From an uncultured Candidatus Saccharibacteria bacterium (GTDB lineage Bacteria; Patescibacteriota; JABMPQ01; JAQVVF01): DNA of 64,000 nucleotides. This document shows positions 1,831 to 28,192 of the stretch, one piece after another (the stretch's first letter is position 1; each line of letters opens with the position of its first letter). A program made the translations under genes and the position numbers. The notes beneath the pieces were generated by a model. That model was not told where the DNA came from and ran no database searches. It saw only the letters and a program-made list of their open reading frames with translations. The stretch lies in NCBI GenBank assembly GCA_964574655.1, contig CAZNOH010000001.1, forward strand, positions 9,852 to 73,851, written 5' to 3'.

Positions 1831-4800
1831 ATGGCAAATATAACGACTGATTTTAATGCGATAAGATTAAAATTGGCATCTCCAGACGAGATTCTAGACT
1901 GGTCTTTTGGAGAAGTAAAAAAGCCAGAAACAATCAATTATCGTACTCAGCGTCCGGAAAAAGATGGTCTTTTTTCGGAAAGAATTTTTGGTCCAACAAA
2001 AGATTGGGAATGTTATTGCGGAAAATATAAAAGAATTAGATATAAGGGAATCATTTGTGATAAATGCGGTGTTGAAGTTACTAGATCAATTGTTAGACGT
2101 GAAAGAATGGGTCACATTGAATTAGCAGCACCAGTTTCTCACATTTGGTTTCTTAGAGGTGTCCCATCAAAAGTTGGATTGATTTTAGATTTGTCTGCAA
2201 AAAGTTTGGAAAAAGTCGTTTATTTTGCCAGTTATTTAATAACTTCTGTTGACGAAAAAGCAAAGCTAGAAACTTTGAGTGAATTGGAAGATGAATTTAA
2301 ATCAAAGAAGAAAGCAATTGATGATAAATATAAAAATTTAGCTTCTGAATTAAAACAATTGAGAGTCAGACAAAAGTCCGAAAAAGGAAATTCTGCTGAT
2401 GCAGAAAAAAGATTAAAAGTTTTATATTCTGAAAAAGAAAAAGAGCAACAAAAGTTGAATAAGATTTTTAATTTTGAAAAAGAAGAAGTTAAAGACATTA
2501 AAGAATTGAGTATTATTTCGGAATTAAAGTATAGAGACTTGTCTATGAAATATGGACATGTCTTTAAAGCTGGAATTGGAGCTGAAGCAGTTAGAAAAGT
2601 TTTAGTTGAAATTAATTTGGAAAAATTAGTAGCTATTTTAGAAAAAGAATCAACTAATGCTCCAGCCCAAATCAAAAAGAAAATTAAGAGAAGACTAAAA
2701 TTAGTTAAAAATTTGATTAAGGTTGGAATCAGGCCTGAATATACAATTTTGACTGTTTTGCCAGTTATTCCTCCTGATCTTCGTCCGATGGTTCAATTAG
2801 ATGGTGGTAGATATGCAGCTTCTGATTTAAATGATTTATATAGAAGAGTTATCAATAGAAACAATCGTTTAAAAAGATTGATTGAGCTTAATGCGCCAGA
2901 AGTTATTTGTCGAAATGAAAAAAGAATGTTGCAAGAAGCAGTTGATGCATTGTTAGATAATTCTGCAAGATCTGGAAAAGTAACAGCTGCTTCAACTGGT
3001 CAAAAGAGATTATTAAAATCTTTAGCTGATATGTTGAAAGGCAAGCAAGGACGTTTTAGACAGAATCTTTTAGGCAAGCGTGTTGATTATTCTGGACGTT
3101 CAGTAATTGTCGTTGGACCATATTTGAAATTAGGTGAATGTGGTATTCCAAAAATAATGGCATTGGAATTGTTCAAGCCATTTGTTATTCATAGTTTGAT
3201 TAAAAATGAGTTTGCTCATAATGTTAGATCAGCTGGAAAGTTGATTGAAGAAGGCAGACCAGAAGTTTGGGATGCATTGGAAGATATTATTAAAGAAAAA
3301 TACGTTTTGTTAAATCGTGCTCCGACTTTGCATAGATTAGGTATCCAAGCTTTTAAGCCAATTTTGATTGAAGGCAAGGCATTGCAGATTCATCCAATGG
3401 TTTGTTCTGCTTTTAATGCTGACTTCGATGGTGATCAGATGGCTGTTCATGTGCCTTTGACAGATATGGCTCAAAAAGAAGCTAGAGAAATTATGGCTGC
3501 TACTCGTAATTTGTTAAAGCCAGCGACTGGTGTTCCAATTTCTACTCCTTCTCAAGATATTGTTTTGGGTTGTTATTATATTACTAACATGCGAGCTGGT
3601 ATGAAAGGAGAGGGCAAGATTTTCTCTGATTCTGAAGAAGCAATTTTGGCTTATGAAAATGACTTGGTTGATATCAGAGCAAAAATAAAAGTAAGAGTTA
3701 ATGAAGAAATAATTGAAACTTGTGTTGGTAGGATTGTTTTTAATAGAGTTTTACCAAAGGATTTTGGTTTTAGAAATAATGTTATTGATAAAAAAGCATC
3801 ACGTGAATTAATTGGTGAATGTTTGCATAAACATGGTAATGAGGAAACAGTAAAATTAGTTGATGCGATTAAAGAAATCGGCTTTGAATATTTGACTAGA
3901 TCCGGACTTTCTTGGGGCATGGATGATTTGAAATTACCGAAAGAAAAAAAGGGAATGATTGATGAAGCTGCAAAGAAAATTGAAGAAATTAGACAACAAT
4001 ACAAGACTGGACTTTTGACTGACAATGAACGCTATGTCAAAGTTATTGAAACTTGGGCTAATGTAAAAGAAAAAATTACAGAAGTAACAAGAAATACAGT
4101 TGAAGAGTTTGGTCCAGTTTATTCAATGGTTGAGTCTGGTGCTAGAGGTTCATGGCCACAAATTGTACAGATGATGGGTATGAGAGGTTTGATGGCAGCT
4201 CCTTCTGGAAAGACTATTGAGTTGCCAATCAAAAATAGTTTTAAAGAAGGTTTAGGTGTTTTGGAATATTTTATCTCTACTCACGGTGCTAGAAAAGGTT
4301 TAACTGATACAGCCTTGCGTACAGCTAATGCTGGTTATTTGACTCGTAGATTGATTGATGTATCTCAAGACGTTATTGTTCAGGCAGAAGAATGTAGCGA
4401 AACTAAAGGTCTGGAAATTAGCAAAAAAGATAGTCTTGATATGAACACAACAATTGGTGATAGAATCTTAGGAAGAACATTGGCACAAGACATTAAAGAT
4501 AAGGCTGGAAAAGTTGTTATCAAAAAAGGTGAAATCGTTACAAAAATATATGGAAAATTGATTGATAGTTTAGATTTAGATGGAGTTAGAATTTTTTCAA
4601 TAACTACTTGCAAGATGGAAAGAGGAATCTGTCAAAAATGTTATGGTTGGGATTTGGGTGTAAATGATAAGGTAAAAATTGGACAAGCTGTTGGTATTAT
4701 TGCTGCTCAATCGATTGGTGAGCCTGGAACACAGTTGACGATGAGAACCTTCCATACTGGTGGTGTTGCAAGTGAAGGCGATATTACTCAAGGTTTGCCT

Positions 4801-12154: not shown

Positions 12155-12931
12155 TTAGGAAAGAGCAACGAAACCTTGGGTTATTTTTTCTGGCGGTAGT
12201 TCCAGAAGTGTGCTAGCTAAATTTGATTGATTGCAGTTTAGTGAATTTTTAAAACTATCAAGCCAATGGGTTGCAAATCGAGAGGTTTTTATAAAGTGAT
12301 AGGCAATTAGATCGCAGAGAAATTCGATATCTTCGTGAGTCAAAGCAAAAGAATTATTTTCGTGCAACCAAGCATGGAAAAGTTCGTGGACAAAAATAGC
12401 AATAAATTGTTCTTTAGGCAGGCCGAAAAGGATAAAGATTTTGTGGCAGGAAATTGTTTTTTTCCCATTGGGGAAAACTTGAAATTGAGTTTGGCATTGG
12501 CCTAGAACTGTTTTGCTAATAACGCCATTGTGTTTTCTTAATTTTAATAATGTATTTAGATCAACTATTTCATAAGAGAGCGGTTTTCTGACGACTATTT
12601 TCCATTGAGATAAGATTTTGAAAACAAAGTTAATAATTGATTGATCTAAAATATAAATGGCATTGGAAAAACAGTTTGAACAGACAAGGCGATGATCTGA
12701 TAATGGGAATGTAGTTTTTTCATCTAGCTGTTTGGTGCAAGAAAAACAGCAGAGATTTGGTTTATAACAGGTTTCGCAGACATTGCCCCAATCTGTTTTG
12801 AGAAAAGATGTGGTGACTGGTTGATGGCAAACAATGCATTTTGGCGCTTGATGGTTTCGACAAAAAATACAAAATTTTCTATCTTCAATTCGATAGATTG
12901 TGTTTACTTCCATACCGCAGTCGCAACGCAT
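12155..12931 (-). CDS. DA1-like zinc metallopeptidase with three N-terminal LIM-like/zinc-ribbon CxxC pairs
   Basis: N-terminus has repeated CxxC...CxxC pairs (CDCG...CIFC, CIVC...CETC, CFSC...CSNC). C-terminus has HELFHAWLHE...E, closely resembling the DA1-like peptidase HEMMHAW motif. Confidence 0.5.
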   Translation of the reverse strand: MRCDCGMEVNTIYRIEDRKFCIFCRNHQAPKCIVCHQPVTTSFLKTDWGNVCETCYKPNLCCFSCTKQLDEKTTFPLSDHRLVCSNCFSNAIYILDQSIINFVFKILSQWKIVVRKPLSYEIVDLNTLLKLRKHNGVISKTVLGQCQTQFQVFPNGKKTISCHKIFILFGLPKEQFIAIFVHELFHAWLHENNSFALTHEDIEFLCDLIAYHFIKTSRFATHWLDSFKNSLNCNQSNLASTLLELPPEKITQGFVALS

Positions 12932-13061
12932 GGCTTCCTCCTTTTTTTAAAGAGCGAATTTATGTTTTTAGAATATACTTTTTTTGAGAGGAAAAATATT
13001 GAAAAAGTTAAGAAAATAAAATATGGCTTATTCAAGCCATATTTTTAGTATTTCTTTATAT

Positions 13062-14888
13062 TTAGATTATTTTGTCAATAATGCTTATTTTAAGATCGTC
13101 TAGATTTATTTTTAAATAAAATTTAATTAGAGTTCCGTTGGTTTTTAGATCTAGGTCTTTTTTAGTATATTTTTTAACAAGTTTTTTTAAAGGGCCGATG
13201 ATTTTTCCTTGCATATCATTTCTATTGGTGCTGTAAGAAGAGCGGGGCAATTTATTGCTGGTAATACTGGATTGTTGATTTTCCAATAATATTTTTAATA
13301 TTTCAATGGCTGTTTTTTGGGAAGGAAGTTGTTTGGAAGTCAGAGTTTTGCCTTTGATAAAAATTTTATGATTGATATTATCTAGGAGTAAATCAATTTC
13401 TTCTTTCTTAATTTTTTCTTCCAGCAGTAATTGAATTGATGTTTCAGAGGATGTAAAAGTTTTTTGAATAAGGGTATCTTTTTGGACATATTTTGAATAA
13501 ATTCCTTGCAACCAAGATTGTTCAATTTTTAATCCTTGTTCTTGAGAAGAATTATCCAGCCAAGAGGCAAAATCTAGATTAATATCTGGATTAAATTTGC
13601 TTTTTAATTCTGCAACAATCTGATCAATTTTGTTTCTCAATTGATAGGAATTAGCAACAAACAAAATATCGCCTCGGCGAACGGTGCCGGAGATCTTAGC
13701 AGCAGCTAAAATGTCTTCTTGGCCAGATTTTTTAGCTAGCAATCTAAAAGACGAAATTAAACGATCGCAATTTGGCGAGGAAAGATTAAGGAGGTTGAAG
13801 AGATACTGCTCTTTATTTAATAGTTCGACAAGATTTTTTAGCAAATCGGAAGAGAATCCTTGGCTAAAGATTTTTTTGAAAGCAATATAAGATTGAAAAG
13901 AATTGATGGGCAAGCAATCAGTATATTTATTCCAAAGCTCATTATTTTCTTGGTAAATTTTTCCGATCAGAGTTTTTGATTTGCCTAAATATTTTTTTAG
14001 ATCGATGAAGCAGTTTTGAGAATCCTTAATCAGTTTAGTTTTAAATTCTTTAATTTGAGCTTGTGAATCATGGACATCTCTGTTTTCTCCCGTATAAATT
14101 AGGCCATAGTCAAAAGGCCAAGACCAGCTGGTTAGATGATTGGTTATTTCATCTAATTTAATGATTTGATAAAAGCTGGAATCGATAGAATCAAGCTCTT
14201 CTAATCTAGGCTGATTTTGAGCTGGATTAGATTTGGTTTTTTTGCTGAAAAATAGAACAGGAACAGAAGATGGCAAAATGCTAGTAAGATTGCTGCCGCT
14301 AGCATTTGGAAAAAGAAAGCTTTCCCATTTCCAAATGGTTTTGAAAAGAAAATCAAATTTTAAATCTTTATTTTCTTTTAACTCAAGGCAATTTTTATTT
14401 TTCCAGCTAATAACGTCTTGTTGGTCTAATTTTTGGTTAAGAATCAAAGCACTAGTTAACAAGGCAACTAAAATAGCGCCACTGCCTAAGCCTCTTTCTA
14501 AAGGCAGTTCATTAAGAATATGAATATTAAAACCAATAGGCTTTTTAATTTGGCAAACATCTGTTAAAAATTTAAGGAAATATTTTTCAGTTTTTTCTGT
14601 TAAATACGGATCAAAATCATCCTTGTGGAAGGTTTGTGAATTAGGATCAAAATAAGCATAGCTGGTGATTCTAATGTTTTGTTTTTTATTGGGAATTAGG
14701 CCGACATAAGTTTTGAGAGGCAGATTTTGACGCAAAGTTAATCCGTCGTATTTGACAGCTTGCTCGCCAAACCAAGTGAAAGATCGCGGGGAAGAACAAA
14801 CTAAAGGGCATTGTGAAAAGAAATCTCGGTAGATTTTAGGGAATGTCTTTTGTAAAGACAATGAATTCATTGTAATGCGATTAGCCAT
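13062..14888 (-). CDS. GHMP-kinase family protein, unusually long (608 aa)
   Basis: GHMP motif I-like SPRSFTWFGEQAVKYDG (compare APGKVILFGEHAVVYG) and motif II PLERGLGSGAILVALL (PxGSGLGSSAA-like). The C-terminal ~350 aa match nothing recognisable. Confidence 0.55.
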   Translation of the reverse strand: MANRITMNSLSLQKTFPKIYRDFFSQCPLVCSSPRSFTWFGEQAVKYDGLTLRQNLPLKTYVGLIPNKKQNIRITSYAYFDPNSQTFHKDDFDPYLTEKTEKYFLKFLTDVCQIKKPIGFNIHILNELPLERGLGSGAILVALLTSALILNQKLDQQDVISWKNKNCLELKENKDLKFDFLFKTIWKWESFLFPNASGSNLTSILPSSVPVLFFSKKTKSNPAQNQPRLEELDSIDSSFYQIIKLDEITNHLTSWSWPFDYGLIYTGENRDVHDSQAQIKEFKTKLIKDSQNCFIDLKKYLGKSKTLIGKIYQENNELWNKYTDCLPINSFQSYIAFKKIFSQGFSSDLLKNLVELLNKEQYLFNLLNLSSPNCDRLISSFRLLAKKSGQEDILAAAKISGTVRRGDILFVANSYQLRNKIDQIVAELKSKFNPDINLDFASWLDNSSQEQGLKIEQSWLQGIYSKYVQKDTLIQKTFTSSETSIQLLLEEKIKKEEIDLLLDNINHKIFIKGKTLTSKQLPSQKTAIEILKILLENQQSSITSNKLPRSSYSTNRNDMQGKIIGPLKKLVKKYTKKDLDLKTNGTLIKFYLKINLDDLKISIIDKII

Positions 14889-14949: not shown

Positions 14950-14978
14950 TTGACAATATTGTTTTTCTTAATTATAGT
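14950..14978 (+). promoter_or_regulatory. Putative promoter TTGACA-N17-TATAGT for the P-loop kinase-like gene
   Basis: Consensus -35, 17-nt spacer, then a leader containing GATTGTTCTTTGACAAAG and the SD. Confidence 0.5.
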
Positions 14979-15030
14979 AAAAAGAAATATTGATTGTTCT
15001 TTGACAAAGACAAAGAAAGGAGGGAAGGCA

Positions 15031-16080
15031 ATGGTAATGGAAAATCTGATGCCTGAACAAGAAAAAGTAAAATTGGAACCATTAACAGCTTGGATGATGC
15101 GGGAACGGCGAGATTTTATAGCCAAATCTTCTTTGGCAGTGAGAGCTTTAGTTGTAGAGTTTTTGGGAATGGGCGGTTGTTGGAAAAGCACTTTGATCAA
15201 TGAATTGGTAACAAAATATTTCTATCCATTTGGCATTGAATTAGTGACTTATGAAGAGCCTGATAAAAAGATTCCGGAAGTTTCTCGAGAAAGGGAGCCA
15301 AAGAAGTTTCGCATCGCTACATATAGAAGAACTTTGGCTAATCTTGATGAAGCTTTGGGTTCAGTAAAAGATTTGGCTTTGTTTGATCGCGGACTTTTTG
15401 ATTTTATTGTTTGGTTTAATTTGGATTTTACCGGAGGGCTGTTGAGCGAAGAAGAATGCAGAAGAGGCATTGCTGATATCATGTTGCGTGGTTACGGAAA
15501 GGTTGACTTGATGTTTGTACATACAGATCAGGTTGCTTCTTGCTTGAAAAGCACTCCATCAATGGGTTCAACATCTTTAATGGATTCTTTTTATCTGTCT
15601 CGGCGGAATGCAGGAGAAAGGCAAATTCGTTTCCAGCTTTATCAAAGAATGTACCAAGAAATGTTTTTGGGCGATGAAAAAAAGTTAGTCAAAAAGGCTG
15701 TCAAATTTATGTTTGACATGAATTTGGGAAAGTTTAATCGTAATTTTGCTGAAGTTTTTTGGCAGGCAGTAGTGCTGATTGATCTGTATCTGGTCTTTCA
15801 GACTTGGGAAAGCCTTTTCTTGGATCGTTTTGGAGATGAATTGAAGCAAAATGAGCGCACATCTGATTTGGAAAAAAGGATTATGAAGTTAGGCGAGGCC
15901 TTGTTTTCGTCGCTAGAGCATTTGCGGAGGATTAAAGTTTATGAATTGCATGCAGATATAGTAAAGATCTTGGATTCATACGCGCAGACAGAATTTGTTA
16001 TTGCTCGGTGCGATGGATGGCGGGTGGTGGTTTCGGATATTTTCGGGTCTCCGCCAAAGTTTCGTATCTTGGAAGGTTAA
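15031..16080 (+). CDS. P-loop NTPase, deoxynucleoside/nucleotide-kinase-like
   Basis: Walker A-like VVEFLGMGGCWKSTLINEL followed by a DRGLFD motif. The start is set at the ATG 8 nt after AAAGGAGGG; the in-frame upstream Met at 14950 lies inside the promoter/leader. Confidence 0.45.
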   Translation: MVMENLMPEQEKVKLEPLTAWMMRERRDFIAKSSLAVRALVVEFLGMGGCWKSTLINELVTKYFYPFGIELVTYEEPDKKIPEVSREREPKKFRIATYRRTLANLDEALGSVKDLALFDRGLFDFIVWFNLDFTGGLLSEEECRRGIADIMLRGYGKVDLMFVHTDQVASCLKSTPSMGSTSLMDSFYLSRRNAGERQIRFQLYQRMYQEMFLGDEKKLVKKAVKFMFDMNLGKFNRNFAEVFWQAVVLIDLYLVFQTWESLFLDRFGDELKQNERTSDLEKRIMKLGEALFSSLEHLRRIKVYELHADIVKILDSYAQTEFVIARCDGWRVVVSDIFGSPPKFRILEG

Positions 16081-16185: not shown

Positions 16186-16986
16186 ATGGATGAAAAAAAG
16201 ACATTTAAGGTTGTATTGCCTTCGGGTGATGTGAAGGTTTGGGAATTTGATATTAAAACAAAGCCAAGTGAAGGATTGAATCAAAAAGCAGGAATTGGGA
16301 ATTTATTTTTTAAGTTTGGGAAGATAGCAGGAAAGATAATAGGATTATTTTTCTATTGGTTGGGACATGGATTTGTGTTGATGTTTAAGAAAATTCTAAA
16401 GGCGATTTCTGTCTTTGCAATATTGATTAAAAAAGTAGTGAAAAGAATTTATAGAAAAATGGAATTTCATGGTTTTTTGAGAGTCTTTTTGAATTTCTTT
16501 GTTTTGTTTATTTTAGGATTGGTCAGTTTTTGTTATTGGAAATGGCTAGTTCCTTGGATTCTGTCTGTTGAAGAGATAGCTTATCGTCATTCTGCAACTG
16601 TGTATTTTATTTATTTAGGGGTGTGTTTGTTAGTGACACTTGTATGGCTTTTTAGAAATCTGAATTCAAAAAAACGTAGTGAAATTACAGTTTTATATCT
16701 TGCTTTGATCTTGATTGTAATAGCAATAGCAATGTCAGGTTTTTTTGCTTTTCTAGCAATATCATTTTCTATTTATATCTTTGAAAATGTTGTTTTATCA
16801 GCGATTGTTCATGGGATTTTGCTCCTTTTAGCGATGATATTTGGTATTAGAGAAGCTGAATGGTTAAAACCGGATAAAAAAGAACAACTTGTAATGATTG
16901 ATAGAAACTTAATTGGATTGAAGCGTTTTGCCTCAGATAGCTTAAGAAAATTGGAAAGAATTGAGAAAGAACGTTCAAAAAAATAA
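16186..16986 (+). CDS. Paralog-family protein P1 (conserved N-terminal module MDEKKTFKVVLPSGDVKVWEF, polytopic membrane protein)
   Basis: N-terminal module shared with six downstream paralogs, at least five hydrophobic helices, strong SD AGGAGGAGG, leader motif GTTCTTTCAAAA. Confidence 0.6.
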   Translation: MDEKKTFKVVLPSGDVKVWEFDIKTKPSEGLNQKAGIGNLFFKFGKIAGKIIGLFFYWLGHGFVLMFKKILKAISVFAILIKKVVKRIYRKMEFHGFLRVFLNFFVLFILGLVSFCYWKWLVPWILSVEEIAYRHSATVYFIYLGVCLLVTLVWLFRNLNSKKRSEITVLYLALILIVIAIAMSGFFAFLAISFSIYIFENVVLSAIVHGILLLLAMIFGIREAEWLKPDKKEQLVMIDRNLIGLKRFASDSLRKLERIEKERSKK

Positions 16987-16993
16987 ATTTTAG

Positions 16994-17021
16994 TCCCAAT
17001 AAACAAGATTGGGATTTTTTC
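16994..17021 (+). terminator. Terminator after P1
   Basis: TCCCAAT-AAACAAG-ATTGGGA followed by TTTTTT. Confidence 0.7.
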
Positions 17022-17093
17022 TTAATTTTTTCTCTAGTAAAAAGTTTTAATAGTTAGATAATGGAGTTGTTCTTTGACAAAAAGGAGGAGAAA

Positions 17094-18452
17094 ATGAGCA
17101 AGTCTGTAGTACCGATTATTTTGCAGTCCATGAGACATGAGCAGGATTTATTTAAATGGAATCCAGAATTTGATTTGAATGTAGTTAATTTTGATCAGTT
17201 TAACAGGCCTTACATTAGGCAAAGAGGCAATGATGATCATGAGACTAGTTTTGTTCAAGTTTTGGATGACAGTGGAAAATTGGTAAAGTATGGTTTTGTG
17301 AAGGCAATTAAGGAAAGTTTTTCTGATTTTACAAAGACACTTTTAGGAGCTGGATCGCAGATGGCAAGGATTGTGTTTGATAAAGATAACCATGCTTATA
17401 CTTTAGTACGAATTGCTTGTGGCTTGGGAACGAAAGAAGTCCAGATAGGTTTGTTGCTTTATTCAAGAGATCAATGCAGAACTTGGCAAGTTTATAAGTT
17501 GCCGATTAATGGTGTGGCAACGATGGAATATTTTACCGGACATAATCAGATTAATGGACCGCCAATGATTGCTGTTTTTGAGAAAACAAAGGTGAAGGTG
17601 GCAAAATGGGCGACAATTCATAAATTATATGTTGTGGTGGTTAAAAAAACTAAGACAGGTCTTGAGTTTGAGCAGATAATAAAAGTGACAGAGAAATCTT
17701 TTGGTCTTTCAGCGCATTCTGGTGGGGCATCAGTCTTGGCTAGTTTAGATAGTAAAACGTATGTTATTTGGACAGAAGTAACTAATAACCCTAGTCATTT
17801 GGGATCGCCGACATTTGTAGCGACTTTTGATCATAGTTCCAAGAGATTAATCAATAAATCATTTGTTGGTTGTACATCAAAGCCGAAAAATGATATGCAC
17901 AATACTCCAGGGATTTGTTTGGATAGCCGAGGATTTTTAAATGTAATGCTTGGAGCGCACGCTGGTAGTTTTTTTTATGGCAGGAGCCAGATTTCTAACT
18001 CAGTAGAAAGAGGATGGACTTTGTTGCATGAAACATATTCGTCTGTCGGTCAAACTTATATTGCTTTGGTTTGTGATCAGGTAGATAATTTACATCTTGT
18101 TTTTCGGGATCATAGATATGGCAAAAGAGATTTTCACGCTAGCCATTTTCATTATTGCGCGCTTTGTTATCAAAGAATGTTAAAAGACGGATATTGGGAA
18201 GTTTCAAGACTATTGGTTGTGCCGCCATTGCCAGATTACAGCATCTATTATCATCAGTTGTCGATTGATCGATTAGGAAGATTGTTTTTATCTTACAATT
18301 ACTATAGCGAAAGTGAACCATACAAGAGTTGGATTGAGAAAAATGGCAGATATAATAAGAAATTTCGCGCTATGCTTTTTAGTGGAGATGGCGGTATGAC
18401 TTGGCAAATGGCGACAACGAGAATTTTTTTGGATGGATTTGTGAAGACTTGA
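17094..18452 (+). CDS. Hypothetical protein with two BNR/Asp-box-like motifs (possible beta-propeller)
   Basis: SRDQCRTW and SGDGGMTW match SxDxGxTW. SD AAAGGAGGAG and leader motif TTGTTCTTTGACAAA. The upstream in-frame Met at 17061 is in the leader. Confidence 0.4.
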   Translation: MSKSVVPIILQSMRHEQDLFKWNPEFDLNVVNFDQFNRPYIRQRGNDDHETSFVQVLDDSGKLVKYGFVKAIKESFSDFTKTLLGAGSQMARIVFDKDNHAYTLVRIACGLGTKEVQIGLLLYSRDQCRTWQVYKLPINGVATMEYFTGHNQINGPPMIAVFEKTKVKVAKWATIHKLYVVVVKKTKTGLEFEQIIKVTEKSFGLSAHSGGASVLASLDSKTYVIWTEVTNNPSHLGSPTFVATFDHSSKRLINKSFVGCTSKPKNDMHNTPGICLDSRGFLNVMLGAHAGSFFYGRSQISNSVERGWTLLHETYSSVGQTYIALVCDQVDNLHLVFRDHRYGKRDFHASHFHYCALCYQRMLKDGYWEVSRLLVVPPLPDYSIYYHQLSIDRLGRLFLSYNYYSESEPYKSWIEKNGRYNKKFRAMLFSGDGGMTWQMATTRIFLDGFVKT

Positions 18453-18469
18453 ACTTTGTTAGCTAGGTT

Positions 18470-18497
18470 AACTCTTCTTTTGGGGAGTTTTTTTATT
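18470..18497 (+). terminator. Terminator after the 17094 gene
   Basis: AACTCTTCTTTTGGGGAGTT followed by a T-run; a duplicate of the 16079 terminator. Confidence 0.65.
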
Positions 18498-18627
18498 TTT
18501 CCTAGTTTTTTCAATTTTTTTCTTTTTGATAAGAGATAATAATGAAAGTGGAAAGTAAAAGATAGGACTTTACAACTAGGACATGATCCGCTTTCGCTAA
18601 AGCTACGGCGGACAAAGGAGAACAGCC

Positions 18628-19653
18628 ATGAAGAATATCGGATCAAAATTGTTTGTGCTACTGGGGATGCTTTTGATCGTTATTGGAGCAATTTCGCTTT
18701 TGGTAGCAATTCTTTACGGCAAGTATTTTGCTTTTTTGGCCTTGTATCCTGATTTGGTAGATATGGTGGCGGATTTTGGAGTTAATATTTATCTGTCAAG
18801 AATTGTAGCAGTCTTTGTAACGATTGGATTGTGGGTAGCGATTTTCAAATTCTTGTTGAGCTTCAGCCAGAAAAAGAGAGAAATTGGTTTTTTCATTTTG
18901 TTAGGATTGTTTGTTCTGCATACCTTTTGTTTGTATATTATTAATTTGAATCGGTCTGTTTCTGTTGATGGGCAGGTGGGATTTTGCACGCGAGACCAAA
19001 TTACTGGACGAGTGGAATATTTCGATCGGTCTTTGTATGATGCTTCTGGCCAGAAAGCGGAAAAATGCACAAAAGATGAAATTCGGCAGCTCCGTGTTCA
19101 GGATAAATATCCCAATAATGAGATTCCTTTGATAGCGATTGGCAACTGGTTTGATGAGAATGGTAGTTCGTTGGTTTATTACTATAAAGATAGTCAAGGC
19201 GTACTTCATTTTCGTTATATGGGAGGTTTTGCTCAAACAGGAGAGATGTGGCAACAGGTAACAAAGGAAGTGCTTGGAAAAATCAGTCCAAATTTGCAGT
19301 CGCAGTTTCAGCAAACGAAAGGTGATGTTGTATTGAGGCATAATTTTGATGATCGACCGAATTTAAAGACTCTGTATAGAAATTCTTTGGCGGGATATCT
19401 GATTTTCTTTGTCTTTCTGAATATTGTTTTTTGGGTGGTGTTTTTGAAGATAGCAAGTCTTTCTTTTGGTACGAGGGCTAGTTTAATAGGTTTGGCTGGT
19501 TTGGTTAATCTGGTTGGTTTTTGCGGTATTGATTATGCATCAAGTTGGTCAGGATTGGCAGTTGCGGTTTTAATGATCAGCTTGGCATCGCCGTTTGTAA
19601 TTTCTTTCGTCAAAGGTTTCTGGACAGGAATGAGAGAGAGCAGGCCCGTCTAA
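18628..19653 (+). CDS. Membrane protein, unknown function
   Basis: N- and C-terminal TM clusters flank a ~170 aa hydrophilic domain. SD AAAGGAGAACAGCC precedes the ATG. Confidence 0.55.
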   Translation: MKNIGSKLFVLLGMLLIVIGAISLLVAILYGKYFAFLALYPDLVDMVADFGVNIYLSRIVAVFVTIGLWVAIFKFLLSFSQKKREIGFFILLGLFVLHTFCLYIINLNRSVSVDGQVGFCTRDQITGRVEYFDRSLYDASGQKAEKCTKDEIRQLRVQDKYPNNEIPLIAIGNWFDENGSSLVYYYKDSQGVLHFRYMGGFAQTGEMWQQVTKEVLGKISPNLQSQFQQTKGDVVLRHNFDDRPNLKTLYRNSLAGYLIFFVFLNIVFWVVFLKIASLSFGTRASLIGLAGLVNLVGFCGIDYASSWSGLAVAVLMISLASPFVISFVKGFWTGMRESRPV

Positions 19654-19696
19654 TTAAGGGCGGGAGGTCAACCAACTGGAAGAGGAGGAGACGGTC

Positions 19697-19927
19697 ATGA
19701 CAGGATACACAATCGCAATGTTGATTACTGGCGGGATTTTGCTGATTGTCGGTGTTTTGATTGTAACAGGCGTTTGGAATCCATTTTCTAAGAAGGATGC
19801 AGATGGCAAGAAGGAGCCGTTGTCCCGAAAGGAAAAAGGGATGGTGGCAGGCTTCTTTGCAATGCTGATTCTGGCAATCGTGAATTTCTTCTACGCCATT
19901 TTTCCGATGCAGAAGCGAAAGTCCTAA
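19697..19927 (+). CDS. Small 2-TM protein (paralog of 28448..28696)
   Basis: 76 aa with two hydrophobic helices, shares the W-x-PF...K-x-PL-x-KEK pattern with the 28448 ORF, SD GAGGAGGAG, followed by terminator hairpin CCCGA/TCGGG. Confidence 0.55.
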   Translation: MTGYTIAMLITGGILLIVGVLIVTGVWNPFSKKDADGKKEPLSRKEKGMVAGFFAMLILAIVNFFYAIFPMQKRKS

Positions 19928-19945
19928 AATATCATTCGTTCATTC

Positions 19946-19969
19946 ATCCCGATTTATTCGGGATTTTTA
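19946..19969 (+). terminator. Terminator after the small 2-TM gene
   Basis: CCCGA-TTTAT-TCGGG followed by ATTTTTAT. Confidence 0.55.
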
Positions 19970-20047
19970 TTTAATTGACAATAAGATTCTTTTATACTAT
20001 GTTGGAGAGAATGTTCTTTTCAAAATAGAAGAAAGGAGGAAAAAAGG

Positions 20048-20794
20048 ATGTCTAAGGGAGAGAAATTTAAAGTAATTGATCCATCGGGGGAATTGAAGGA
20101 ATGGTCATTTAAAGAAAAGCCAAAAAGTGCTGAACCAATGGTTTGTGAGGAAAAGAGAATAGAAACAAAGCCAAGTGTATTTTTCGAACTTGGAAAAATG
20201 TTTGGAAAAAAAATGAAGTTCTTGAAGTTATACGGAGTATGGATTATTTTTTGCATTTTGGGTATTCTCGCTGTTTTTTTTATTTGGGTATTGGCAATTT
20301 TTGTGCATGGAAGCGATTTTCTTTCTCAGACCATTCCAATACAGTCTAGGTCGCAACAGAAGCAAAGTATTGTCACACAAAATACCAAAGTGGTACAAAG
20401 ATCATGGCCACTGGGAAGCAAAGCAGAAGTATTGGTAGAAGATGTGGAGTGGAATTATTCAAGAAATGAGTTTTACTGTAATTTACATGAGATTAAGGGA
20501 TGGAGTGTTGTTTTTGATCGGGTAGAGACGCGGATCTGGAAATTACAGAAAAGTGATGAATCACCACAAGTTTTTAAACAAAGAGAGCCTCATTATTGGA
20601 CCCGAAACGTGCATCTTAATATTAGGCCTTTTCAACGTTATTGTGGAAAAGATAGACGGTCAGATCGTTGCGTGATAACTTTGGAAAACTATCGAGCATG
20701 GCTACAAGAAATAGAATGGATTGAGGTGAAACTTTTAGGTAAAGATGCACGAGGAAATGAAGTGAGTGTGGTTTTAGAGACTTATGATCATTGA
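20048..20794 (+). CDS. Paralog-family protein P2 (N-module + 1 TM + C-terminal domain shared with P6)
   Basis: MSKGEKFKVIDPSGELKEWSF, one TM. The C-terminal ~115 aa are alignable with the C-terminus of P6 (RIWKLQ..ESPQ.FKQR.P..WTR.VH...LENYRAWLQ..EWIE.KL.GKD.RGNE). Confidence 0.6.
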   Translation: MSKGEKFKVIDPSGELKEWSFKEKPKSAEPMVCEEKRIETKPSVFFELGKMFGKKMKFLKLYGVWIIFCILGILAVFFIWVLAIFVHGSDFLSQTIPIQSRSQQKQSIVTQNTKVVQRSWPLGSKAEVLVEDVEWNYSRNEFYCNLHEIKGWSVVFDRVETRIWKLQKSDESPQVFKQREPHYWTRNVHLNIRPFQRYCGKDRRSDRCVITLENYRAWLQEIEWIEVKLLGKDARGNEVSVVLETYDH

Positions 20795-20952
20795 TATTTA
20801 TACAGTTTTTTGAAGCTGTATTTTTTTTCTTAACTTTTTCAATTTTCTTTTTAAAGATTTGTTCTAATATTAGGTTAGATGATAGTTGACTAATTTTATT
20901 GTTCATGCTATCCTACAGTGATTGTTCTTTGACAAATCAAGGAGGAAGGAAA
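20795..20952 (+). repeat. Array cassette copy A (terminator + CTTAACTTTTTCAATTTTC box + promoter + GTTCTTTGACAAA leader + SD)
   Basis: About 85-95% identical to cassettes B-E over ~130 nt, by direct reading. Confidence 0.8.
20886..20914 (+). promoter_or_regulatory. Cassette promoter (TTGACT-N17-TATCCT) of P3
   Basis: Part of the duplicated cassette; same geometry in all five array copies. Confidence 0.45.
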
Positions 20953-21558
20953 ATGCCAGAAGAAAAGAAAACTTTTCAAGTGATTGCGCCGGATGGAGAG
21001 CTGAAAGAATGGGAAATTGAGAATTCAAAAGAAATAGGATTGGTGGAAAACAAGTTTAAAGAGAGACGAGCGATTTCAGTGAATGTTTTTTTTAGATGTG
21101 GAAGATGGGCAGGAAAAATAATATTGGGTTGGTTTTCTTTTTTCGTTTCAAAATTAGAACTTTTATTAAAACAAAAAGCCGAAAAGAAATTATTGAAAGT
21201 AAAAGAGAAAGTTGAAAGGGAAGAGAGTAAACGGTTAAAAATAAAGAGAATACATGAAGAAAGAATGCATGAAGAAGCAAAGAGAAAAGAATTAATTTTG
21301 CAGAGTATTGATGTTTTGGACAATGCGGGATATCACGAAAAAGCTGCAAGGATTGCTAAGGAGACAGGAAGTTATGAGAGAGCTATTGATATTTTAGATC
21401 GTACTGGACACCATGAAAAAGCTGCAGAGATTGCTGAGGAGGTAGGAAATTATGGGAAAGCTATTGATATTTTGGTACGATCGGGACATCACGGAAAAGC
21501 AGGGAGAATTGGTGAAAGACTTGCTAGAAGATCTAATAATTCTGTAAAAAAAGTTTAA
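20953..21558 (+). CDS. Paralog-family protein P3 (N-module + tandem 19-aa helical repeats)
   Basis: MPEEKKTFQVIAPDGELKEWEI, then three tandem repeats of G[YH]HEKAA.IA.E.G.Y..AIDIL.R.GHH. The start is at the ATG after AAGGAGGAAGGAAA. Confidence 0.6.
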   Translation: MPEEKKTFQVIAPDGELKEWEIENSKEIGLVENKFKERRAISVNVFFRCGRWAGKIILGWFSFFVSKLELLLKQKAEKKLLKVKEKVEREESKRLKIKRIHEERMHEEAKRKELILQSIDVLDNAGYHEKAARIAKETGSYERAIDILDRTGHHEKAAEIAEEVGNYGKAIDILVRSGHHGKAGRIGERLARRSNNSVKKV

Positions 21559-21746
21559 GATTTAAATAAAGATACTATTTTATTAATTTGTACCTTTTCG
21601 GAGTTTTCTCCGATTTTTTTTATTAACTTTTTCAATTCTCTTTTTAATAATTTGTATTAAAATTAGATTAGATGGATAGTTGACCAATCTTATTGTTCAT
21701 GCTATTCTTCAGTGATTGTTCTTTGACAAATCAAGGAGGAAGGAAA
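21559..21746 (+). repeat. Array cassette copy B
   Basis: Hairpin TCGGAG/CTCCGA, the TTAACTTTTTCAATTCTC box, promoter, leader and SD. Confidence 0.8.
21680..21708 (+). promoter_or_regulatory. Cassette promoter (TTGACC-N17-TATTCT) of P4
   Basis: Duplicated cassette copy. Confidence 0.45.
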
Positions 21747-22838
21747 ATGGCAGAAGAAAAGAAAACTTTTCAAGTGATTACGCCGGATGGGGAATTGAAA
21801 GATTGGGAATTAGATGCGCCTAAACTAAAAAAGGCGGATGATAAGCTTAATAAAAAAAATCAGAGTTTGAGATTGGCTTTTGAATGGATGAAGAAAGCAG
21901 GAATGGCAACAGGAAAACATTATAGATTAATCCTGATTGTTGCGAGCTGTGTTTATTTGGCGGTATGGATTTGGCAAGAAAGATCTTTTCGTCTTGAAGA
22001 ACTTCATCGTCAAGAAGTAGTAGCTATGCAGTTACAGCAAAAAGAGAAAGCTAGAATGAGAGTAGGAGAAGAAAAAAAGGAAGAGAAGATTGCAACCACA
22101 AAGGCACAAAAAACTGACGAAAAAACACAAGAGGTTGAAGAAAAAGTTGAAGTTGCAGAACCTGAAAAAGAAAAAGAATGCTATGGTAAAGGGAACAAAT
22201 TGGTGAATGGGGTATGCGTACTAGAACATGTTATAAGAATGCATGAACAGTACGAGCACGAATTACAAAAAGAAAGACAAGCAGACAAAGAGAGACAACG
22301 TGGAGATGAGTTACGCAGGAAAGAAGTGTTTCACAGACAAGAGGAAGCTTGGTTGGTAGAAGAAGCAATGCGAAAGTTAGAAGTGGAGCGGAAAGAGGAG
22401 CACGAAGCTATTTTGGGACAACGACATGAGTATTTGAAAGAGCAACGAAGATTAGAAAGAGAGAGCAATCCTCATGTATATAGATCAAAATATCCAGTAG
22501 TTTTAAAGCCAGATTTATTAATAAAAGGAGCCTCTTCTAGCGTGATAGACGTTCCGGATGACTTTATAATCAGAGAAGTCATTATTGAACTAGATGTGAA
22601 GGTGGATAAACAGTATCTTCCATCTCAAAGTCATTTTGATTGTAATCTCTTGAGATCAGGCAAATTAATTAGTTTAAAAGGTTGTTGTATAGGTGGATGT
22701 GTTTTTAGCGAATTTATTCGTGAATCGTCAAGAGGGGAATGGAAAATATTGAAGAAAAAAATGCCAGGACGATTTCTTAGGTGGAAGATAACAATTGTCC
22801 CGGCAATTGCAGAAGATGGAACAGTGTTAAAACCTTAG
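21747..22838 (+). CDS. Paralog-family protein P4 (N-module + TM + charged coiled-coil + P-domain-like C-terminus)
   Basis: First ~90 aa identical to P5. E/K/R/Q-rich middle section. C-terminal ~95 aa alignable with P5 (VIDVPDDF.IR...CNL.RSGK...GEWKI...ITI.PA.AEDGTVLKP). Confidence 0.6.
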   Translation: MAEEKKTFQVITPDGELKDWELDAPKLKKADDKLNKKNQSLRLAFEWMKKAGMATGKHYRLILIVASCVYLAVWIWQERSFRLEELHRQEVVAMQLQQKEKARMRVGEEKKEEKIATTKAQKTDEKTQEVEEKVEVAEPEKEKECYGKGNKLVNGVCVLEHVIRMHEQYEHELQKERQADKERQRGDELRRKEVFHRQEEAWLVEEAMRKLEVERKEEHEAILGQRHEYLKEQRRLERESNPHVYRSKYPVVLKPDLLIKGASSSVIDVPDDFIIREVIIELDVKVDKQYLPSQSHFDCNLLRSGKLISLKGCCIGGCVFSEFIRESSRGEWKILKKKMPGRFLRWKITIVPAIAEDGTVLKP

Positions 22839-23002
22839 ATCTTTTTTGTTAAAACGCGCATTATTGACGCGTTTTTTTCTTAACTTTTTCAATTTTGTTT
22901 TTGAAGATTTGTTCTAACATTAGGTTAGATGATAGTTGACCAATCTTATTGTTCATGCTATTCTTCAGTGATTGTTCTTTGACAAATCAAGGAGGAAGGA
23001 AA
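22839..23002 (+). repeat. Array cassette copy C
   Basis: Hairpin AACGCG/CGCGTT; the remainder is near-identical to copy B and continues into the identical first ~270 nt of P4/P5. Confidence 0.8.
22936..22964 (+). promoter_or_regulatory. Cassette promoter (TTGACC-N17-TATTCT) of P5
   Basis: Duplicated cassette copy, identical to the P4 copy. Confidence 0.45.
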
Positions 23003-23959
23003 ATGGCAGAAGAAAAGAAAACTTTTCAAGTGATTACGCCGGATGGGGAATTGAAAGATTGGGAATTAGATGCGCCTAAACTAAAAAAGGCGGATGATAA
23101 GCTTAATAAAAAAAATCAGAGTTTGAGATTGGCTTTTGAATGGATGAAGAAAGCAGGAATGGCAACAGGAAAACATTATAGATTAATCCTGATTGTTGCG
23201 AGCTGTGTTTATTTGGCGGTATGGATTTGGCAAGAAAGATCTTTTCGTCTTGAAGAACTTCATCGTCAGCAGGTAGTAGCTAAGCAGTTACTGCAGGTGG
23301 AAGAAGGAAAAAGAGAGAGAATAAGAATACGAACAGATGAAGAAAGAAAACGTCGTGATGAAGTAGAGAGACAACAGTTGGAACGGCAAAGGTTGGAAGA
23401 ACAGCTGTGGGTAGAAGAGGAGCATAGCAGGCAGGCAAAATTACGTCAGACGAAAGATGATAGGAGACGTCGTGATGAAGAGGAAAGACGGCTGATAATG
23501 TTGCGTCGACAAGAGGAAATCAGATTGGCACGAGAGGCAAAGCAAAGAGAGAGGGAAGAACGTGAACCGCATACATATAAAACGAGTCAGCCAATGGTAT
23601 TAAAAGCAGGCGCATCACAAGAAGCTTATTTTAAATTTGCAGAGAGTGTAATTGATGTTCCAGATGATTTTTATATTAGAGGGATTAGGATTTGGTTAAA
23701 GTTGGATGTTAAGAGCTTTTATAGAGATGAATTTTTAAAACCTCGTTATGACGGTTTAGAATGTAATCTCGTGAGATCTGGCAAGGTAACTTTTTTAAGA
23801 GATTGTTGTCTTGATGGATGTCTTTTTGATGAATTTAATAGTGAATCGTCAAAAGGAGAATGGAAGATAAAGGTAAGAGCAGTAGAAGGATGGATTAATT
23901 CGTGGCAGATAACAATTACGCCAGCAGTTGCAGAAGATGGGACAGTATTAAAACCATAG
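23003..23959 (+). CDS. Paralog-family protein P5 (mosaic paralog of P4)
   Basis: Identical to P4 over the promoter, leader and first ~90 codons, diverges into an R/E-rich coiled-coil, then rejoins P4 in the C-terminal beta-domain. Confidence 0.6.
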   Translation: MAEEKKTFQVITPDGELKDWELDAPKLKKADDKLNKKNQSLRLAFEWMKKAGMATGKHYRLILIVASCVYLAVWIWQERSFRLEELHRQQVVAKQLLQVEEGKRERIRIRTDEERKRRDEVERQQLERQRLEEQLWVEEEHSRQAKLRQTKDDRRRRDEEERRLIMLRRQEEIRLAREAKQREREEREPHTYKTSQPMVLKAGASQEAYFKFAESVIDVPDDFYIRGIRIWLKLDVKSFYRDEFLKPRYDGLECNLVRSGKVTFLRDCCLDGCLFDEFNSESSKGEWKIKVRAVEGWINSWQITITPAVAEDGTVLKP

Positions 23960-24125
23960 ATTGTTTTTTGTTAAAACGCGCATGTGTCGCGTTTTTTTTT
24001 TAACTTTTTCAGTTTTCTTTTTAATAATTTGCATTAAAATCAGATTAGACGGATAGTTGACCAATTTTATTGTTCATGCTATCCTGTAGTGATTGTTCTT
24101 TAAACAAAGAAAAGAGGAGGGAAGT
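23960..24125 (+). repeat. Array cassette copy D
   Basis: Same terminator type as copy C, box TTAACTTTTTCAGTTTTC. The leader variant ends GTTCTTTAAACAAAGAAAAGAGGAGGG. Confidence 0.75.
24057..24085 (+). promoter_or_regulatory. Cassette promoter (TTGACC-N17-TATCCT) of P6
   Basis: Duplicated cassette copy. Confidence 0.45.
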
Positions 24126-26325: not shown

Positions 26326-27285
26326 ATGTGGGCGAAAATCGGGTTTTTTTTGCTGGCAGTCTTGGCAATTTATATCGGCATTGCGCTTTTAGTAAAGTTT
26401 TTTCCGCAGATTTTTCGGCAAAAAAATCTTGATACTCTGCGGAGGGCAAGCGGAAATATGTTTGTTCCTCAAGGCGCTTTTGGAAGAACTCTTGGATTAA
26501 CATTGGGAATTCCGGTGGCGATAATGGGAGTAACAGCAGTAGTAGAATTTGAACAAAAAAGATTGCTAGGTTTGAAAATTAGAGAACTGGAAAATAAGAT
26601 AGTTGCTAAATTAAGCAAAGGAATTATTTATTTTATTTCGCTTAGAGTTTTTTTGGATGAGAAGTTGAGTTTGTGGAAAAGACAGATTGCAATTGGTGAA
26701 TTTGAGCATCTTAGTTTGTTGGGCGAGGTTGATGATTTGGCGAGAAAATTAAAAGATTTTTGGCCAGTGATTTCAGAAATCGAAGTTTTGCTGGCAGATA
26801 ATTTTCAATTGTTAGAAAAAGTGAAGCAAATGCAGTTGCCTTCGGAAATTAATGGCGAGGTTGGGAAATTGGAGCAGGCTTTGAGGGAATACCAGAAAAT
26901 AACGATAGATTTTGACAGTTTGGCGCCTTTTGTTTCTTTGGGCGATGATTTGAAACAGATCAATACTTTATTAAAGCAAATTATGATGATGGATTCTGAA
27001 TTGCAGAATAAGATTGAGCCTAAAAAAGATTATTATATCATTTTAGGACTTAAAAAAAATGCTTCACAAGAAGAGATAAAGAAAGCTTATCGAGCTTTGG
27101 CGATAAAATTTCATCCTGATAAAAAAAGATCCCAATTGGAAAAAATTGACGATGAGGATATGAAAGCCAGAATTGAAGAAGAATATAATCGGATGCTGGC
27201 GGATATTAATGAAGCTTATGGAATTTTATTAGATGTCCAAAAGAGAGAAGAATATGACCGAACTTTTTCGTCAAGTACTTTTTAG
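26326..27285 (+). CDS. DjlA-like membrane-anchored J-domain co-chaperone
   Basis: Two N-terminal TM helices, a coiled-coil middle, and a C-terminal J domain with HPD (DYYIILGLKKNASQEEIKKAYRALAIKFHPDKK). Confidence 0.7.
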   Translation: MWAKIGFFLLAVLAIYIGIALLVKFFPQIFRQKNLDTLRRASGNMFVPQGAFGRTLGLTLGIPVAIMGVTAVVEFEQKRLLGLKIRELENKIVAKLSKGIIYFISLRVFLDEKLSLWKRQIAIGEFEHLSLLGEVDDLARKLKDFWPVISEIEVLLADNFQLLEKVKQMQLPSEINGEVGKLEQALREYQKITIDFDSLAPFVSLGDDLKQINTLLKQIMMMDSELQNKIEPKKDYYIILGLKKNASQEEIKKAYRALAIKFHPDKKRSQLEKIDDEDMKARIEEEYNRMLADINEAYGILLDVQKREEYDRTFSSSTF

Positions 27286-27364
27286 TATTTGACATTTTTC
27301 TTTTGTTTTGTTTGAACAAGATAAAAGAAAGATAGTTAGCTCTTTAAAAAAAGGAGGGAGAGAC

Positions 27365-28192
27365 ATGGCAAACATAGTCAAGAGGCCAGAATCAGTAACA
27401 GCGCTTTTGACTGATATTCGGAAATTTACAGGCGGTCAATTTTCATCAGTTAGAAAAGAAGATCAGCAGGCAAGTTTTGGCAAAAAACTGCAAGTTGTTT
27501 TTCTGTTTGATACAACTGGAAGCATGTATCCGTATTATGAGCTTGGCAAGAAGCAAATTAGCCAGATAGTTTCGAAGGTCGTAGAAAAACATCGGCAGGC
27601 GCAGTTTTGCTATTTGGCTTATAAGAATCATGGCGATGAAACAGAATTTTTTGACGGCGAGAATCCTTTCTTTGCCTCTTCTTTTACCAGTGATCCAGAA
27701 CAAATCAAGTTGGAATTAGAGAAGGTGAAGAATGGAGGCGGAGGCGATGGTTTGACAGCTTTGGAATGCGTTTTTCATTATCTTAATGTAAATGTCAAAT
27801 GGCAAGATTCGGCAACAAAAATTGTGGTTTTAATTGGCGATATGCCGCCTCATGGAGTGATTGATTCGGTAGCAAAATGTCCAAAAAAGCATAATTATCA
27901 AGATGAGATTGCGCAAATGAAGGCGAAAGGGATAAAGGTTTATTCAGTATTCTGTTTTGAAGAGGGTAATTTGGTTTCATCTCGGATAAAGCAGGTTAAA
28001 ATGTTTTTTAGGGAAACAGCTTCAAGAACTAATGGGCGCTATCTGGAATTGGCAGAGATTGGAGAAATTGTTGATTTGTTGACAGGAATTTGCATGAAGG
28101 AAATTGGTCATTTGGATGAATTTGTCAAGGATTTGGAAAGATTGCAGCAGCTTTCCGATGGGAAGAGAAGACTGTTGCTGGCACTGAAGTAA
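27365..28192 (+). CDS. von Willebrand factor type A (vWA) domain protein
   Basis: MIDAS-like VVFLFDTTGSM with an alpha/beta alternation typical of vWA. Start is the ATG after AAAAAGGAGGGAGAGAC. Confidence 0.6.
   Translation: MANIVKRPESVTALLTDIRKFTGGQFSSVRKEDQQASFGKKLQVVFLFDTTGSMYPYYELGKKQISQIVSKVVEKHRQAQFCYLAYKNHGDETEFFDGENPFFASSFTSDPEQIKLELEKVKNGGGGDGLTALECVFHYLNVNVKWQDSATKIVVLIGDMPPHGVIDSVAKCPKKHNYQDEIAQMKAKGIKVYSVFCFEEGNLVSSRIKQVKMFFRETASRTNGRYLELAEIGEIVDLLTGICMKEIGHLDEFVKDLERLQQLSDGKRRLLLALK

Follow-up and report, generated by a model that had tools for sequence, protein, structure and literature searches.

How an architecture best known from plants, LIM-like zinc fingers joined to a DA1-like peptidase, comes to be encoded in a small bacterial genome, and what it would do there, is the question raised by a gene found in the DNA analyzed here, a stretch of 64,000 nucleotides (the window) from positions 9,852 to 73,851 of contig CAZNOH010000001.1, which belongs to the uncultured Candidatus Saccharibacteria assembly GCA_964574655.1. 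An earlier reading made from the sequence alone, the original prediction, regarded the gene product as eukaryote-like and as a possible regulatory protease. The evidence presented below leads us to consider it probable that the gene encodes a soluble, cytoplasmic and zinc-dependent metallopeptidase of the DA1-like (LIM-peptidase) type, in a short form found in Patescibacteria and linked to a gene cluster. The open reading frame (ORF) is real and of native composition: it is single, complete and 258 amino acids (aa) long, extends on the minus strand with exact boundaries (12155-12931, stop codon at 12155-12157) and has a GC content of 35.1%, compared to 33.7% for the window. NCBI-derived data contain an identical protein, encoded on a 654-kb contig.

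The nature of the peptidase is indicated by the Pfam family DA1-like (PF12315), which matches residues 160-222 with 34.6 bits for a gathering cut-off of 25 (E 1.7e-8) and is the sole Pfam family above threshold for the full-length protein. In the same Pfam-A scan, the phage metallopeptidase family, SprT-like and Peptidase_M78 all scored 12-14 bits, under their own cut-offs; on the peptidase, SprT-like (PF10263) obtained 14.2 bits for 25.6 (E 0.041), 20 bits less than DA1-like, and Peptidase_M78 (PF06114) 14.5 bits for 22 (E 0.032). The DA1-like identity originally proposed is therefore upheld by the best family match, and the scan did not return the outcome named as its refutation, a best match to SprT or ImmA devoid of any DA1-like signal. 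An NCBIfam search with the peptidase and a PDB sequence search with the window protein gave no match. These scores also bear on another reading, in which the protein would be an ImmA/IrrE (M78)-type protease cutting a cognate transcriptional repressor. Three of 68 sampled family members match Peptidase_M78 as well, but the score lies far under that of DA1-like, no helix-turn-helix repressor gene adjoins the peptidase gene here or in related loci, and PADLOC gives no match for the gene or its neighbours; such a function appears extremely improbable.

Conservation of the active site was judged on alignments of 68 and 76 sequences. The motif HELFHAWLHE occupies residues 182-191, and the zinc ligands anticipated from the sequence, H-E-x-x-H and a downstream glutamate, proved to be conserved in both alignments (Table 1), where W188, L168, P172, G144 and C206 are also invariant or almost so. 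The spacing between HExxH and the glutamate equals that of the HEMMH-x15-EE motif defined in Arabidopsis DA1 by Dong et al. (2017, PMC5322733), who found the AEMMA mutant, in which both histidines are changed, to be inactive. From the conserved motif we infer a catalytic zinc liganded by H182, H186 and E203, with E183 acting as general base. The neighbouring C206 (12314-12316), conserved to at least 90% both among the 76 aligned sequences and within the close subfamily (alignments A2, A3 and A5), stands three residues past E203 (E203-x-x-C206) and has a plant DA1 counterpart in 'EEGIC'; on a helix it would share a face with E203, and its candidate roles are structural, as a fourth ligand or as a redox switch.

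An intact motif is pertinent to the view that the protein is a catalytically dead pseudo-peptidase or scaffold, retaining its fingers and peptidase fold for binding alone. Some plant DAR proteins are indeed inhibitors or decoys. DAR3 and DAR4 set a precedent for regulation without catalysis within this family (bioRxiv 10.1101/2022.06.21.497003), and the window protein is missing the C-terminal part of the DA1-like profile together with the YGxGFR motif. Nevertheless, the protein retains all four catalytic-site residues, which do not vary within the subfamily, and we hold a loss of catalysis to be quite improbable.

Three four-Cys units precede the peptidase (C3/C5...C21/C24, C32/C35...C52/C55 and C62/C65...C84/C87). 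They constitute one two-finger LIM-like module and one extra finger, amounting to about 1.5 LIM equivalents and not to three LIM domains; the three LIM-like pairs announced by the original prediction do exist as four-Cys fingers, but their description as LIM was overstated. In the 68- and 76-sequence alignments, conservation of C32, C35, C62, C65, C84 and C87 is complete or at least 90%, whereas C52/C55 align with a C-x2-H pair of the wider family; D79 and R81 are invariant or nearly so family-wide. All eight LIM ligands are present as C4 + C4, and the module is located directly N-terminal to the peptidase in every member. Each of the three Cys clusters would hold one structural zinc. When residues 1-98 alone are submitted, Pfam LIM scores 24.8 bits for a threshold of 22.9, with its best stretch at residues 60-90, and this threshold is also exceeded by the relatives P0004 (32.7), P0008 (25.4) and P0007 (23.1), the equivalent module of the latter aligning to LIM profile positions 1-56. 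A whole-protein hmmscan can mask marginal domains, as LIM surfaces solely with the N-terminal 98 residues. The predicted domain order, LIM-like followed by peptidase, is that of plant DA1 (Dong et al. 2017, PMC5322733), and in this protein the mutation C274Y of a LIM-like cysteine abolishes peptidase activity.

The extra finger, of the form 'MRC[DA]CG...C..C', is shared with P0003, P0004, P0005 and the ORF L007:8001-8879 (L numbers designate related loci) and is absent in other subfamily members, which makes it an accessory module. P0003, P0004, P0005 and the ORF of L007, 292 aa long, carry a further half-LIM not found in the window protein. Two of the relatives have irregular N-terminal regions. 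P0002 (231 aa) seems to be a gene call that misses the N-terminus of this 292-aa ORF, which has two more fingers; P0003 (240 aa, from a metagenome contig, L002:1712-2434) is devoid of 52 residues covering half of the LIM-like module, either by natural in-frame deletion or by assembly artefact.

Structure prediction with AlphaFold2 gave a poor model from three input sequences (pLDDT 57) and the model used here from 76 sequences (pLDDT 87.4, pTM 0.77). In the latter, three small beta-hairpin/helix units (residues 1-27, 32-56 and 61-89) come first, then a helix, a mixed sheet (118-123, 144-152 and 158-168), the active-site helix bearing H182 and H186, the helix bearing E203 and three short C-terminal helices. 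The best PDB match obtained with Foldseek was LIM1+2 of Lhx3 (2rgt), with a probability of 0.99 but E 0.015 and TM 0.22-0.34, followed by the LIM of CRP1 (1b8t, probability 0.87) and by the zincin domain of SPRTN (6mdx_A, probability 0.47, TMq 0.26). In this model at least, the Cys-rich N-terminus resembles LIM domains best among solved structures, in line with what had been expected of the Cys pairs. A family-profile search of the PDB revealed no solved DA1-type peptidase; LIM domains were the sole matches, through the N-terminal LIMs of relatives.

The SPRTN match calls for consideration of a SprT/Wss1/SPRTN-type protease whose zinc fingers would bind DNA and which would act in the repair of DNA-protein crosslinks. 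This function would also agree with the sub-threshold SprT-like score, with the six of 68 relatives that match this family and with the presence of RecA, RodZ-like and FtsK genes within 2 to 7 kb, in an order kept in the related metagenome-assembled genome (MAG) L003. It agrees poorly with the much higher score of DA1-like and with the conserved third ligand, a glutamate 16 residues past HExxH, since the third zinc ligand of SprT is a nearby histidine. Moreover, the zinc module resembles LIM, a protein-binding fold, and the conserved neighbours in other Patescibacteria encode VWA and membrane proteins instead of repair functions. A role in crosslink repair is, in our judgement, very improbable.

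The breadth of the family was assessed by an exhaustive HMMER search with a three-sequence profile, in which counts refer to representatives of 50%-identity clusters. As many as 734 representatives were retrieved at E<=1e-3 and 185 at E<=1e-10; among 68 sampled members, 63 match DA1-like and 46 match Pfam LIM. The close subfamily comprises about 12 representatives of 200-290 aa with 27-42% identity, originating from Falkowbacteria and other Patescibacteria and including one with the UniProt name 'Protein DA1-like domain-containing protein', while the remaining members are 300-530 aa long with extra CxxC/H pairs. A word-indexed protein search found two relatives, one of which is named 'protein DA1 [Candidatus Falkowbacteria bacterium]'. 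In a second indexed search, nearly all of the best 120 of 258 proteins carried PF12315 and PF00412, and some of them bear the source names 'protein DA1' or 'LIM domain-containing protein' (Zixibacteria, Ignavibacteria, Sericytochromatia, GN15 and a Flavobacterium). Over all searches, Falkowbacteria included, every source-named match among those listed was bacterial. Patescibacteria/Falkowbacteria account for all of the nearest relatives (30-45% identity), and hundreds of bacterial LIM-DA1 proteins make up the next layer. The closest locus, in the MAG L003, shares 45% identity in the peptidase and 75-87% in YchF and RecA and displays the gene order of the window: DA1-like, YchF, RecA, RodZ-like and FtsK. 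The first mention of bacterial LIM + DA1-like metallopeptidases is credited to Burroughs, Iyer and Aravind (2011, Mol Biosyst 7:2261), whom Dong et al. (2017, PMC5322733) cite in pointing out bacterial (Roseiflexus) DA1 homologues; the bacterial link was already in the literature by 2011-2017.

These data dispose of the surprise attached to a eukaryote-like protein: its nearest relatives are from Patescibacteria, the next layer is bacterial and the gene has native composition. The protein belongs to a known bacterial family that is already widely annotated, as a short and soluble representative of Patescibacteria type. A recent horizontal transfer from a plant or another eukaryote could be imagined for a family studied best in plants, and in the window protein the LIM-like module and the peptidase follow each other in the order known from Arabidopsis DA1 (Dong et al. 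2017, PMC5322733). BLASTP against Arabidopsis DA1 from the LIM to the C-terminus, which counts as a lead only, produced a single collinear alignment over residues 19-220 (24% identity, E 2e-8) in which PKCxVC, CxSC, LxDxRxxCxxC, ILFGLP, HExxHAW and ExxC occur in order. This identity is nonetheless only about 24%, the GC content is native and the position of the gene is syntenic in L003; a eukaryotic donor is hardly credible.

Regarding localization, neither a signal peptide nor a membrane helix was detected in the peptidase protein, and no segment reached a Kyte-Doolittle 17-residue mean of at least 1.8; the protein is thus predicted to be soluble. By the same measure, 64 of 151 relatives have an N-terminal hydrophobic segment. 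Burroughs, Iyer and Aravind (2011) reportedly found LIM domains of prokaryotes joined to a metallopeptidase, in some cases together with a transmembrane helix, and are said to have proposed that such proteins process other proteins at the membrane. The letters directly 5' of the ATG are AAAGGAGGAAGCC, and the signals found on both sides of the gene are listed in Table 1 with the other features. Rfam and tRNA scans detected nothing relevant near the peptidase gene. Over the whole window, the sole tRNA is Leu-CAG (37189-37272) and no Rfam family reaches its gathering score; GC skew is above 0 in all 2-kb bins (1-64000) and cumulative skew climbs monotonically, which places the window within one replichore.

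Table 1. Features of the peptidase gene and of its neighbourhood in the window.
Feature	Position	Strand	Basis
DA1-like LIM-peptidase gene, 258 aa	12155..12931	-	ORF list, Pfam PF12315
Extra N-terminal finger, residues 3-24 (C3-x-C5...C21-x2-C24)	12860..12925	-	Read from sequence
LIM-like binuclear zinc module, residues 32-87	12671..12838	-	Cys conservation, Pfam LIM on fragment, Foldseek
Zincin-type peptidase domain, residues 97-258 (beta-sheet, active-site helix 173-192, Glu helix 199-217)	12158..12643	-	AlphaFold2 model, Pfam
HELFH (H182, E183, H186)	12374..12388	-	Codons read; invariant in 68- and 76-sequence alignments
E203 of HExxH-x16-E	12323..12325	-	Invariant in alignment A5, at least 90% conserved in A2
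Shine-Dalgarno GGAGG, 5 nt 5' of ATG	12937..12941	-	Upstream sequence AAAGGAGGAAGCCATG
Terminator-like hairpin and T-run straight after stop codon	12138..12156	-	Consensus scan, pattern match only
12-bp palindromic hairpin between upstream GHMP-like gene and peptidase gene	13018..13045	both strands	Consensus scan
608-aa GHMP-kinase-like protein	13062..14888	-	GHMP_kinases_N 24.7 bits vs 22.3
341-aa multi-pass membrane protein	18628..19653	+	Homologues adjoin DA1-like gene in L001/L007, L004, L005, L011, L012, L021, L022
Membrane protein with C-terminal J domain	26326..27285	+	PF00226 DnaJ E 1.2e-17
Soluble VWA-like protein	27308..28192	+	VWA 23.1 bits vs 23.8, borderline

The peptidase gene, present in a single copy in the window, separates two kinds of surroundings. 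One flank is of housekeeping type, with YchF and EF-P in addition to the RecA, RodZ-like and FtsK genes mentioned above. On the other flank, at about 13-28 kb, are found genes for the GHMP-like protein, an AAA_28-like protein, a BNR-like protein, the 341-aa membrane protein, seven membrane paralogues, the J-domain protein and the VWA-like protein, beyond which lie ribosomal protein S6 and SSB. The proteins of this cluster were compared by tblastn with 24 related loci. Homologues of the membrane protein and/or the VWA protein adjoin a DA1-like gene in at least seven distinct contigs or lineages (L001/L007-9, L004/L010, L005, L011, L012, L013, L019, L021 and L022), and J-domain and GHMP-like homologues likewise recur among the related loci. 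What had been termed an accessory island (~12.1-28.2 kb) is therefore a gene cluster recurring in other Patescibacteria, with the peptidase gene included. This conserved cluster is apparently the sole new element at the locus, and it constitutes a lead.

Several arrangements illustrate the association. VWA homologues with 40-50% identity are located immediately upstream of the DA1-like gene or near it in L001/L007, L005, L011, L013 and L019, and in L001/L007-L009 the VWA and DA1-like genes are preceded by a J-domain homologue. One Falkowbacteria scaffold presents the order DA1-like, membrane protein, DA1-like (L004:364-1197 and 2378-3118 for the two DA1-like genes). A 449-kb contig carries two DA1-like genes 13.5 kb apart (L008 8001-8810 and L017 8001-8804), with six membrane-protein paralogues between and around them. 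On a Falkowbacteria contig, about 2 kb separate a GHMP-like homologue (L016-L018 4264-6090, E 1e-42) from the second DA1-like gene. PDB sequence searches with the VWA-like and GHMP-like neighbours gave no match, NCBIfam gave none for most cluster proteins, and neither Pfam nor NCBIfam matched the 341-aa membrane protein. Membership in an anti-phage defence system was considered and rejected, as none of ten cluster proteins, the peptidase and its neighbours included, has a match in PADLOC.

The neighbouring genes had also been described as kinase-like, which holds for the GHMP-like protein and much less for the 376-aa product of 14950-16080, whose weak AAA_28 similarity is below cut-off. The latter was examined as the possible counterpart of a recurring DA1 neighbour of about 370 aa and rejected (BLASTP E>0.1), the true homologue being the 341-aa membrane protein. 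The N-terminal motif of the 608-aa GHMP-like protein is mevalonate-kinase-like and far under the equivalog cut-off, and its long C-terminal half is without family assignment.

Two groups of membrane proteins in the cluster can be described further. The multi-pass family that includes the 341-aa protein (also L004:1275-2381, L005:2048-3193 and L007:6622-14858) is the most constant neighbour of DA1-like genes in Patescibacteria, with up to six tandem paralogues on one Falkowbacteria contig. Its members have three N-terminal transmembrane (TM) helices, a domain of about 130 aa with conserved cysteines, comprising G[YH]CPWG in most of them, and a variable C-terminus. The second group is formed by the seven paralogous genes at 16186-26269, with starts near 16186, 20048, 20954, 21748, 23004, 24123 and 25467. 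Their products share an N-terminal motif close to 'EEKKTF[QK]V[IV]xPxGE[LV]K[ED]WE', after which come a TM helix and very different C-termini. Ahead of five of the seven genes stands a repeated leader of 120 nt (71-100% identical) with GGAGG, and the starts 'MFMLFFSDCSLTNQGGRKM' of the paralogues in the ORF list represent translated leader, not protein. The 'KTFxVxxPxGExKxW' tag family was not found in the related loci; the tag is therefore lineage-specific, and we make no claim for it as a conserved substrate motif.

The function of a DA1-like enzyme in such a setting can be outlined in conditional terms. The LIM-like module may bind or position partner proteins, either choosing substrates or gating the active site, a role proposed because the plant C274Y change inactivates the peptidase. 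The enzyme would perform limited, site-specific cuts in partner proteins and not bulk degradation. Because the gene sits in a conserved Patescibacteria cluster, its substrates or regulators would most likely be products of this cluster, at the cytoplasmic face of the membrane. The lack of ubiquitin-interacting (UIM) motifs implies that, unlike plant DA1, it would not be switched on by ubiquitin; to our knowledge, bacteria of this kind do not possess a ubiquitin system. The role of regulatory protease first suggested is plausible.

A number of points weigh against the interpretation as a cluster-linked DA1-like peptidase. The PF12315 match is restricted to profile positions 77-139 of 213, and the window protein lacks 'DPxYGxGFR', a C-terminal motif that plant DA1 shares with the wider family; as (D/S)PxYGxGFR, this motif figures in the wider-family consensus and in P0006 and P0010 and is missing in most of the close subfamily. 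On the full-length protein, Pfam LIM (PF00412) has no match at E<=1, and the spacer between C55 and C62 measures 6 residues instead of the 2 of canonical LIM. The canonical pattern is C-x2-C-x16-23-H-x2-C-x2-C-x2-C-x16-21-C-x2-C/H/D, and this departure from its spacing justifies the term LIM-like, which is also used for plant DA1. Within the window, a distance of 5.7 to 14 kb separates the peptidase gene from those for the membrane proteins, the J-domain protein and the VWA protein, which are thus not adjacent to it, and three genomes examined outside Patescibacteria (3.8 to 6.9 Mb) show no shared neighbours. Judged by the positive-inside rule, the linked membrane proteins probably have their large soluble, Cys-containing domain outside the cytoplasm; these proteins are then not obvious substrates of a cytoplasmic protease, and the VWA protein, the J-domain protein or short cytoplasmic tails would be more plausible partners. 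Finally, the literature searched contains no biochemical test of any bacterial member.

A more ambitious proposal, which we advance tentatively and think rather unlikely, is that this soluble mini LIM-peptidase is part of an undescribed conserved multigene module of Patescibacteria (Falkowbacteria and relatives) that would process or quality-control envelope proteins at the inner face of the membrane. Its other parts would be the VWA protein, the membrane-anchored J-domain protein, the GHMP-kinase-like protein and fast-diversifying paralogous membrane proteins, of which the seven paralogues present here share the cytoplasmic N-terminal tag 'KTFxVxxPxGExKxWE'. If true, the peptidase would represent a bacterial, ubiquitin-independent counterpart of the cleavage of signalling proteins by DA1.

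The gene taken alone adds little: it confirms the plant DA1 LIM-peptidase design as an old bacterial invention that survives in a reduced genome of about 0.65 Mb. The enzyme appears to be useful at the membrane of these episymbiotic bacteria, to judge from the retention of the gene in a streamlined genome and from the fact that, in related lineages, it is duplicated and closely grouped with envelope, VWA and J-domain genes. The short, soluble form with three fingers would also offer a convenient minimal model for the LIM-like control of a DA1-type active site and for the ancestral function that preceded ubiquitin control.

The closest known systems are the bacterial LIM + DA1-like proteins (PF00412 + PF12315), which align over nearly their full length and share the peptidase core, HExxH-x16-E and an upstream LIM-like module. 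The window protein is shorter (258 aa for 320-420 typically) and has one extra finger only in place of canonical N-terminal LIM domains; it also differs by the lack of the N-terminal hydrophobic segment carried by some of these relatives and of the C-terminal DPxYGxGFR. Its gene belongs to a Patescibacteria-specific cluster, whereas the wider family has no conserved neighbours.

Plant DA1/DAR proteins present the same collinear order, with a LIM-like Cys/His module of four pairs followed by a zincin with HE(M/L)(M/F)HAW...x...E(G/F)(I/L)C and with the ILFGLP strand ahead of the active-site helix. They are activated by ubiquitin, through RING E3 ubiquitylation, and possess tandem UIM motifs, in contrast with the window protein, which has no UIM match and starts at finger 1, has no canonical LIM domain and diverges in the C-terminal subdomain. 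The SprT/Wss1/SPRTN zincins have in common with it a small alpha/beta zincin fold, a helix-borne HExxH and, often, zinc-finger modules, but they are matched below threshold, their third ligand and spacing differ, and the related genomes offer no DNA-repair context. As for eukaryotic LIM proteins (Lhx3, CRP1, paxillin and PINCH), they share two consecutive four-ligand fingers and provide the best structural match, and the family profile matches the LIMs of paxillin and PINCH at E 1e-21 to 1e-23 through the N-terminal LIMs of relatives; the window module is distinguished from them by its all-Cys composition (C4 + C4), its 6-residue spacer and a score barely over the Pfam LIM threshold as a fragment.

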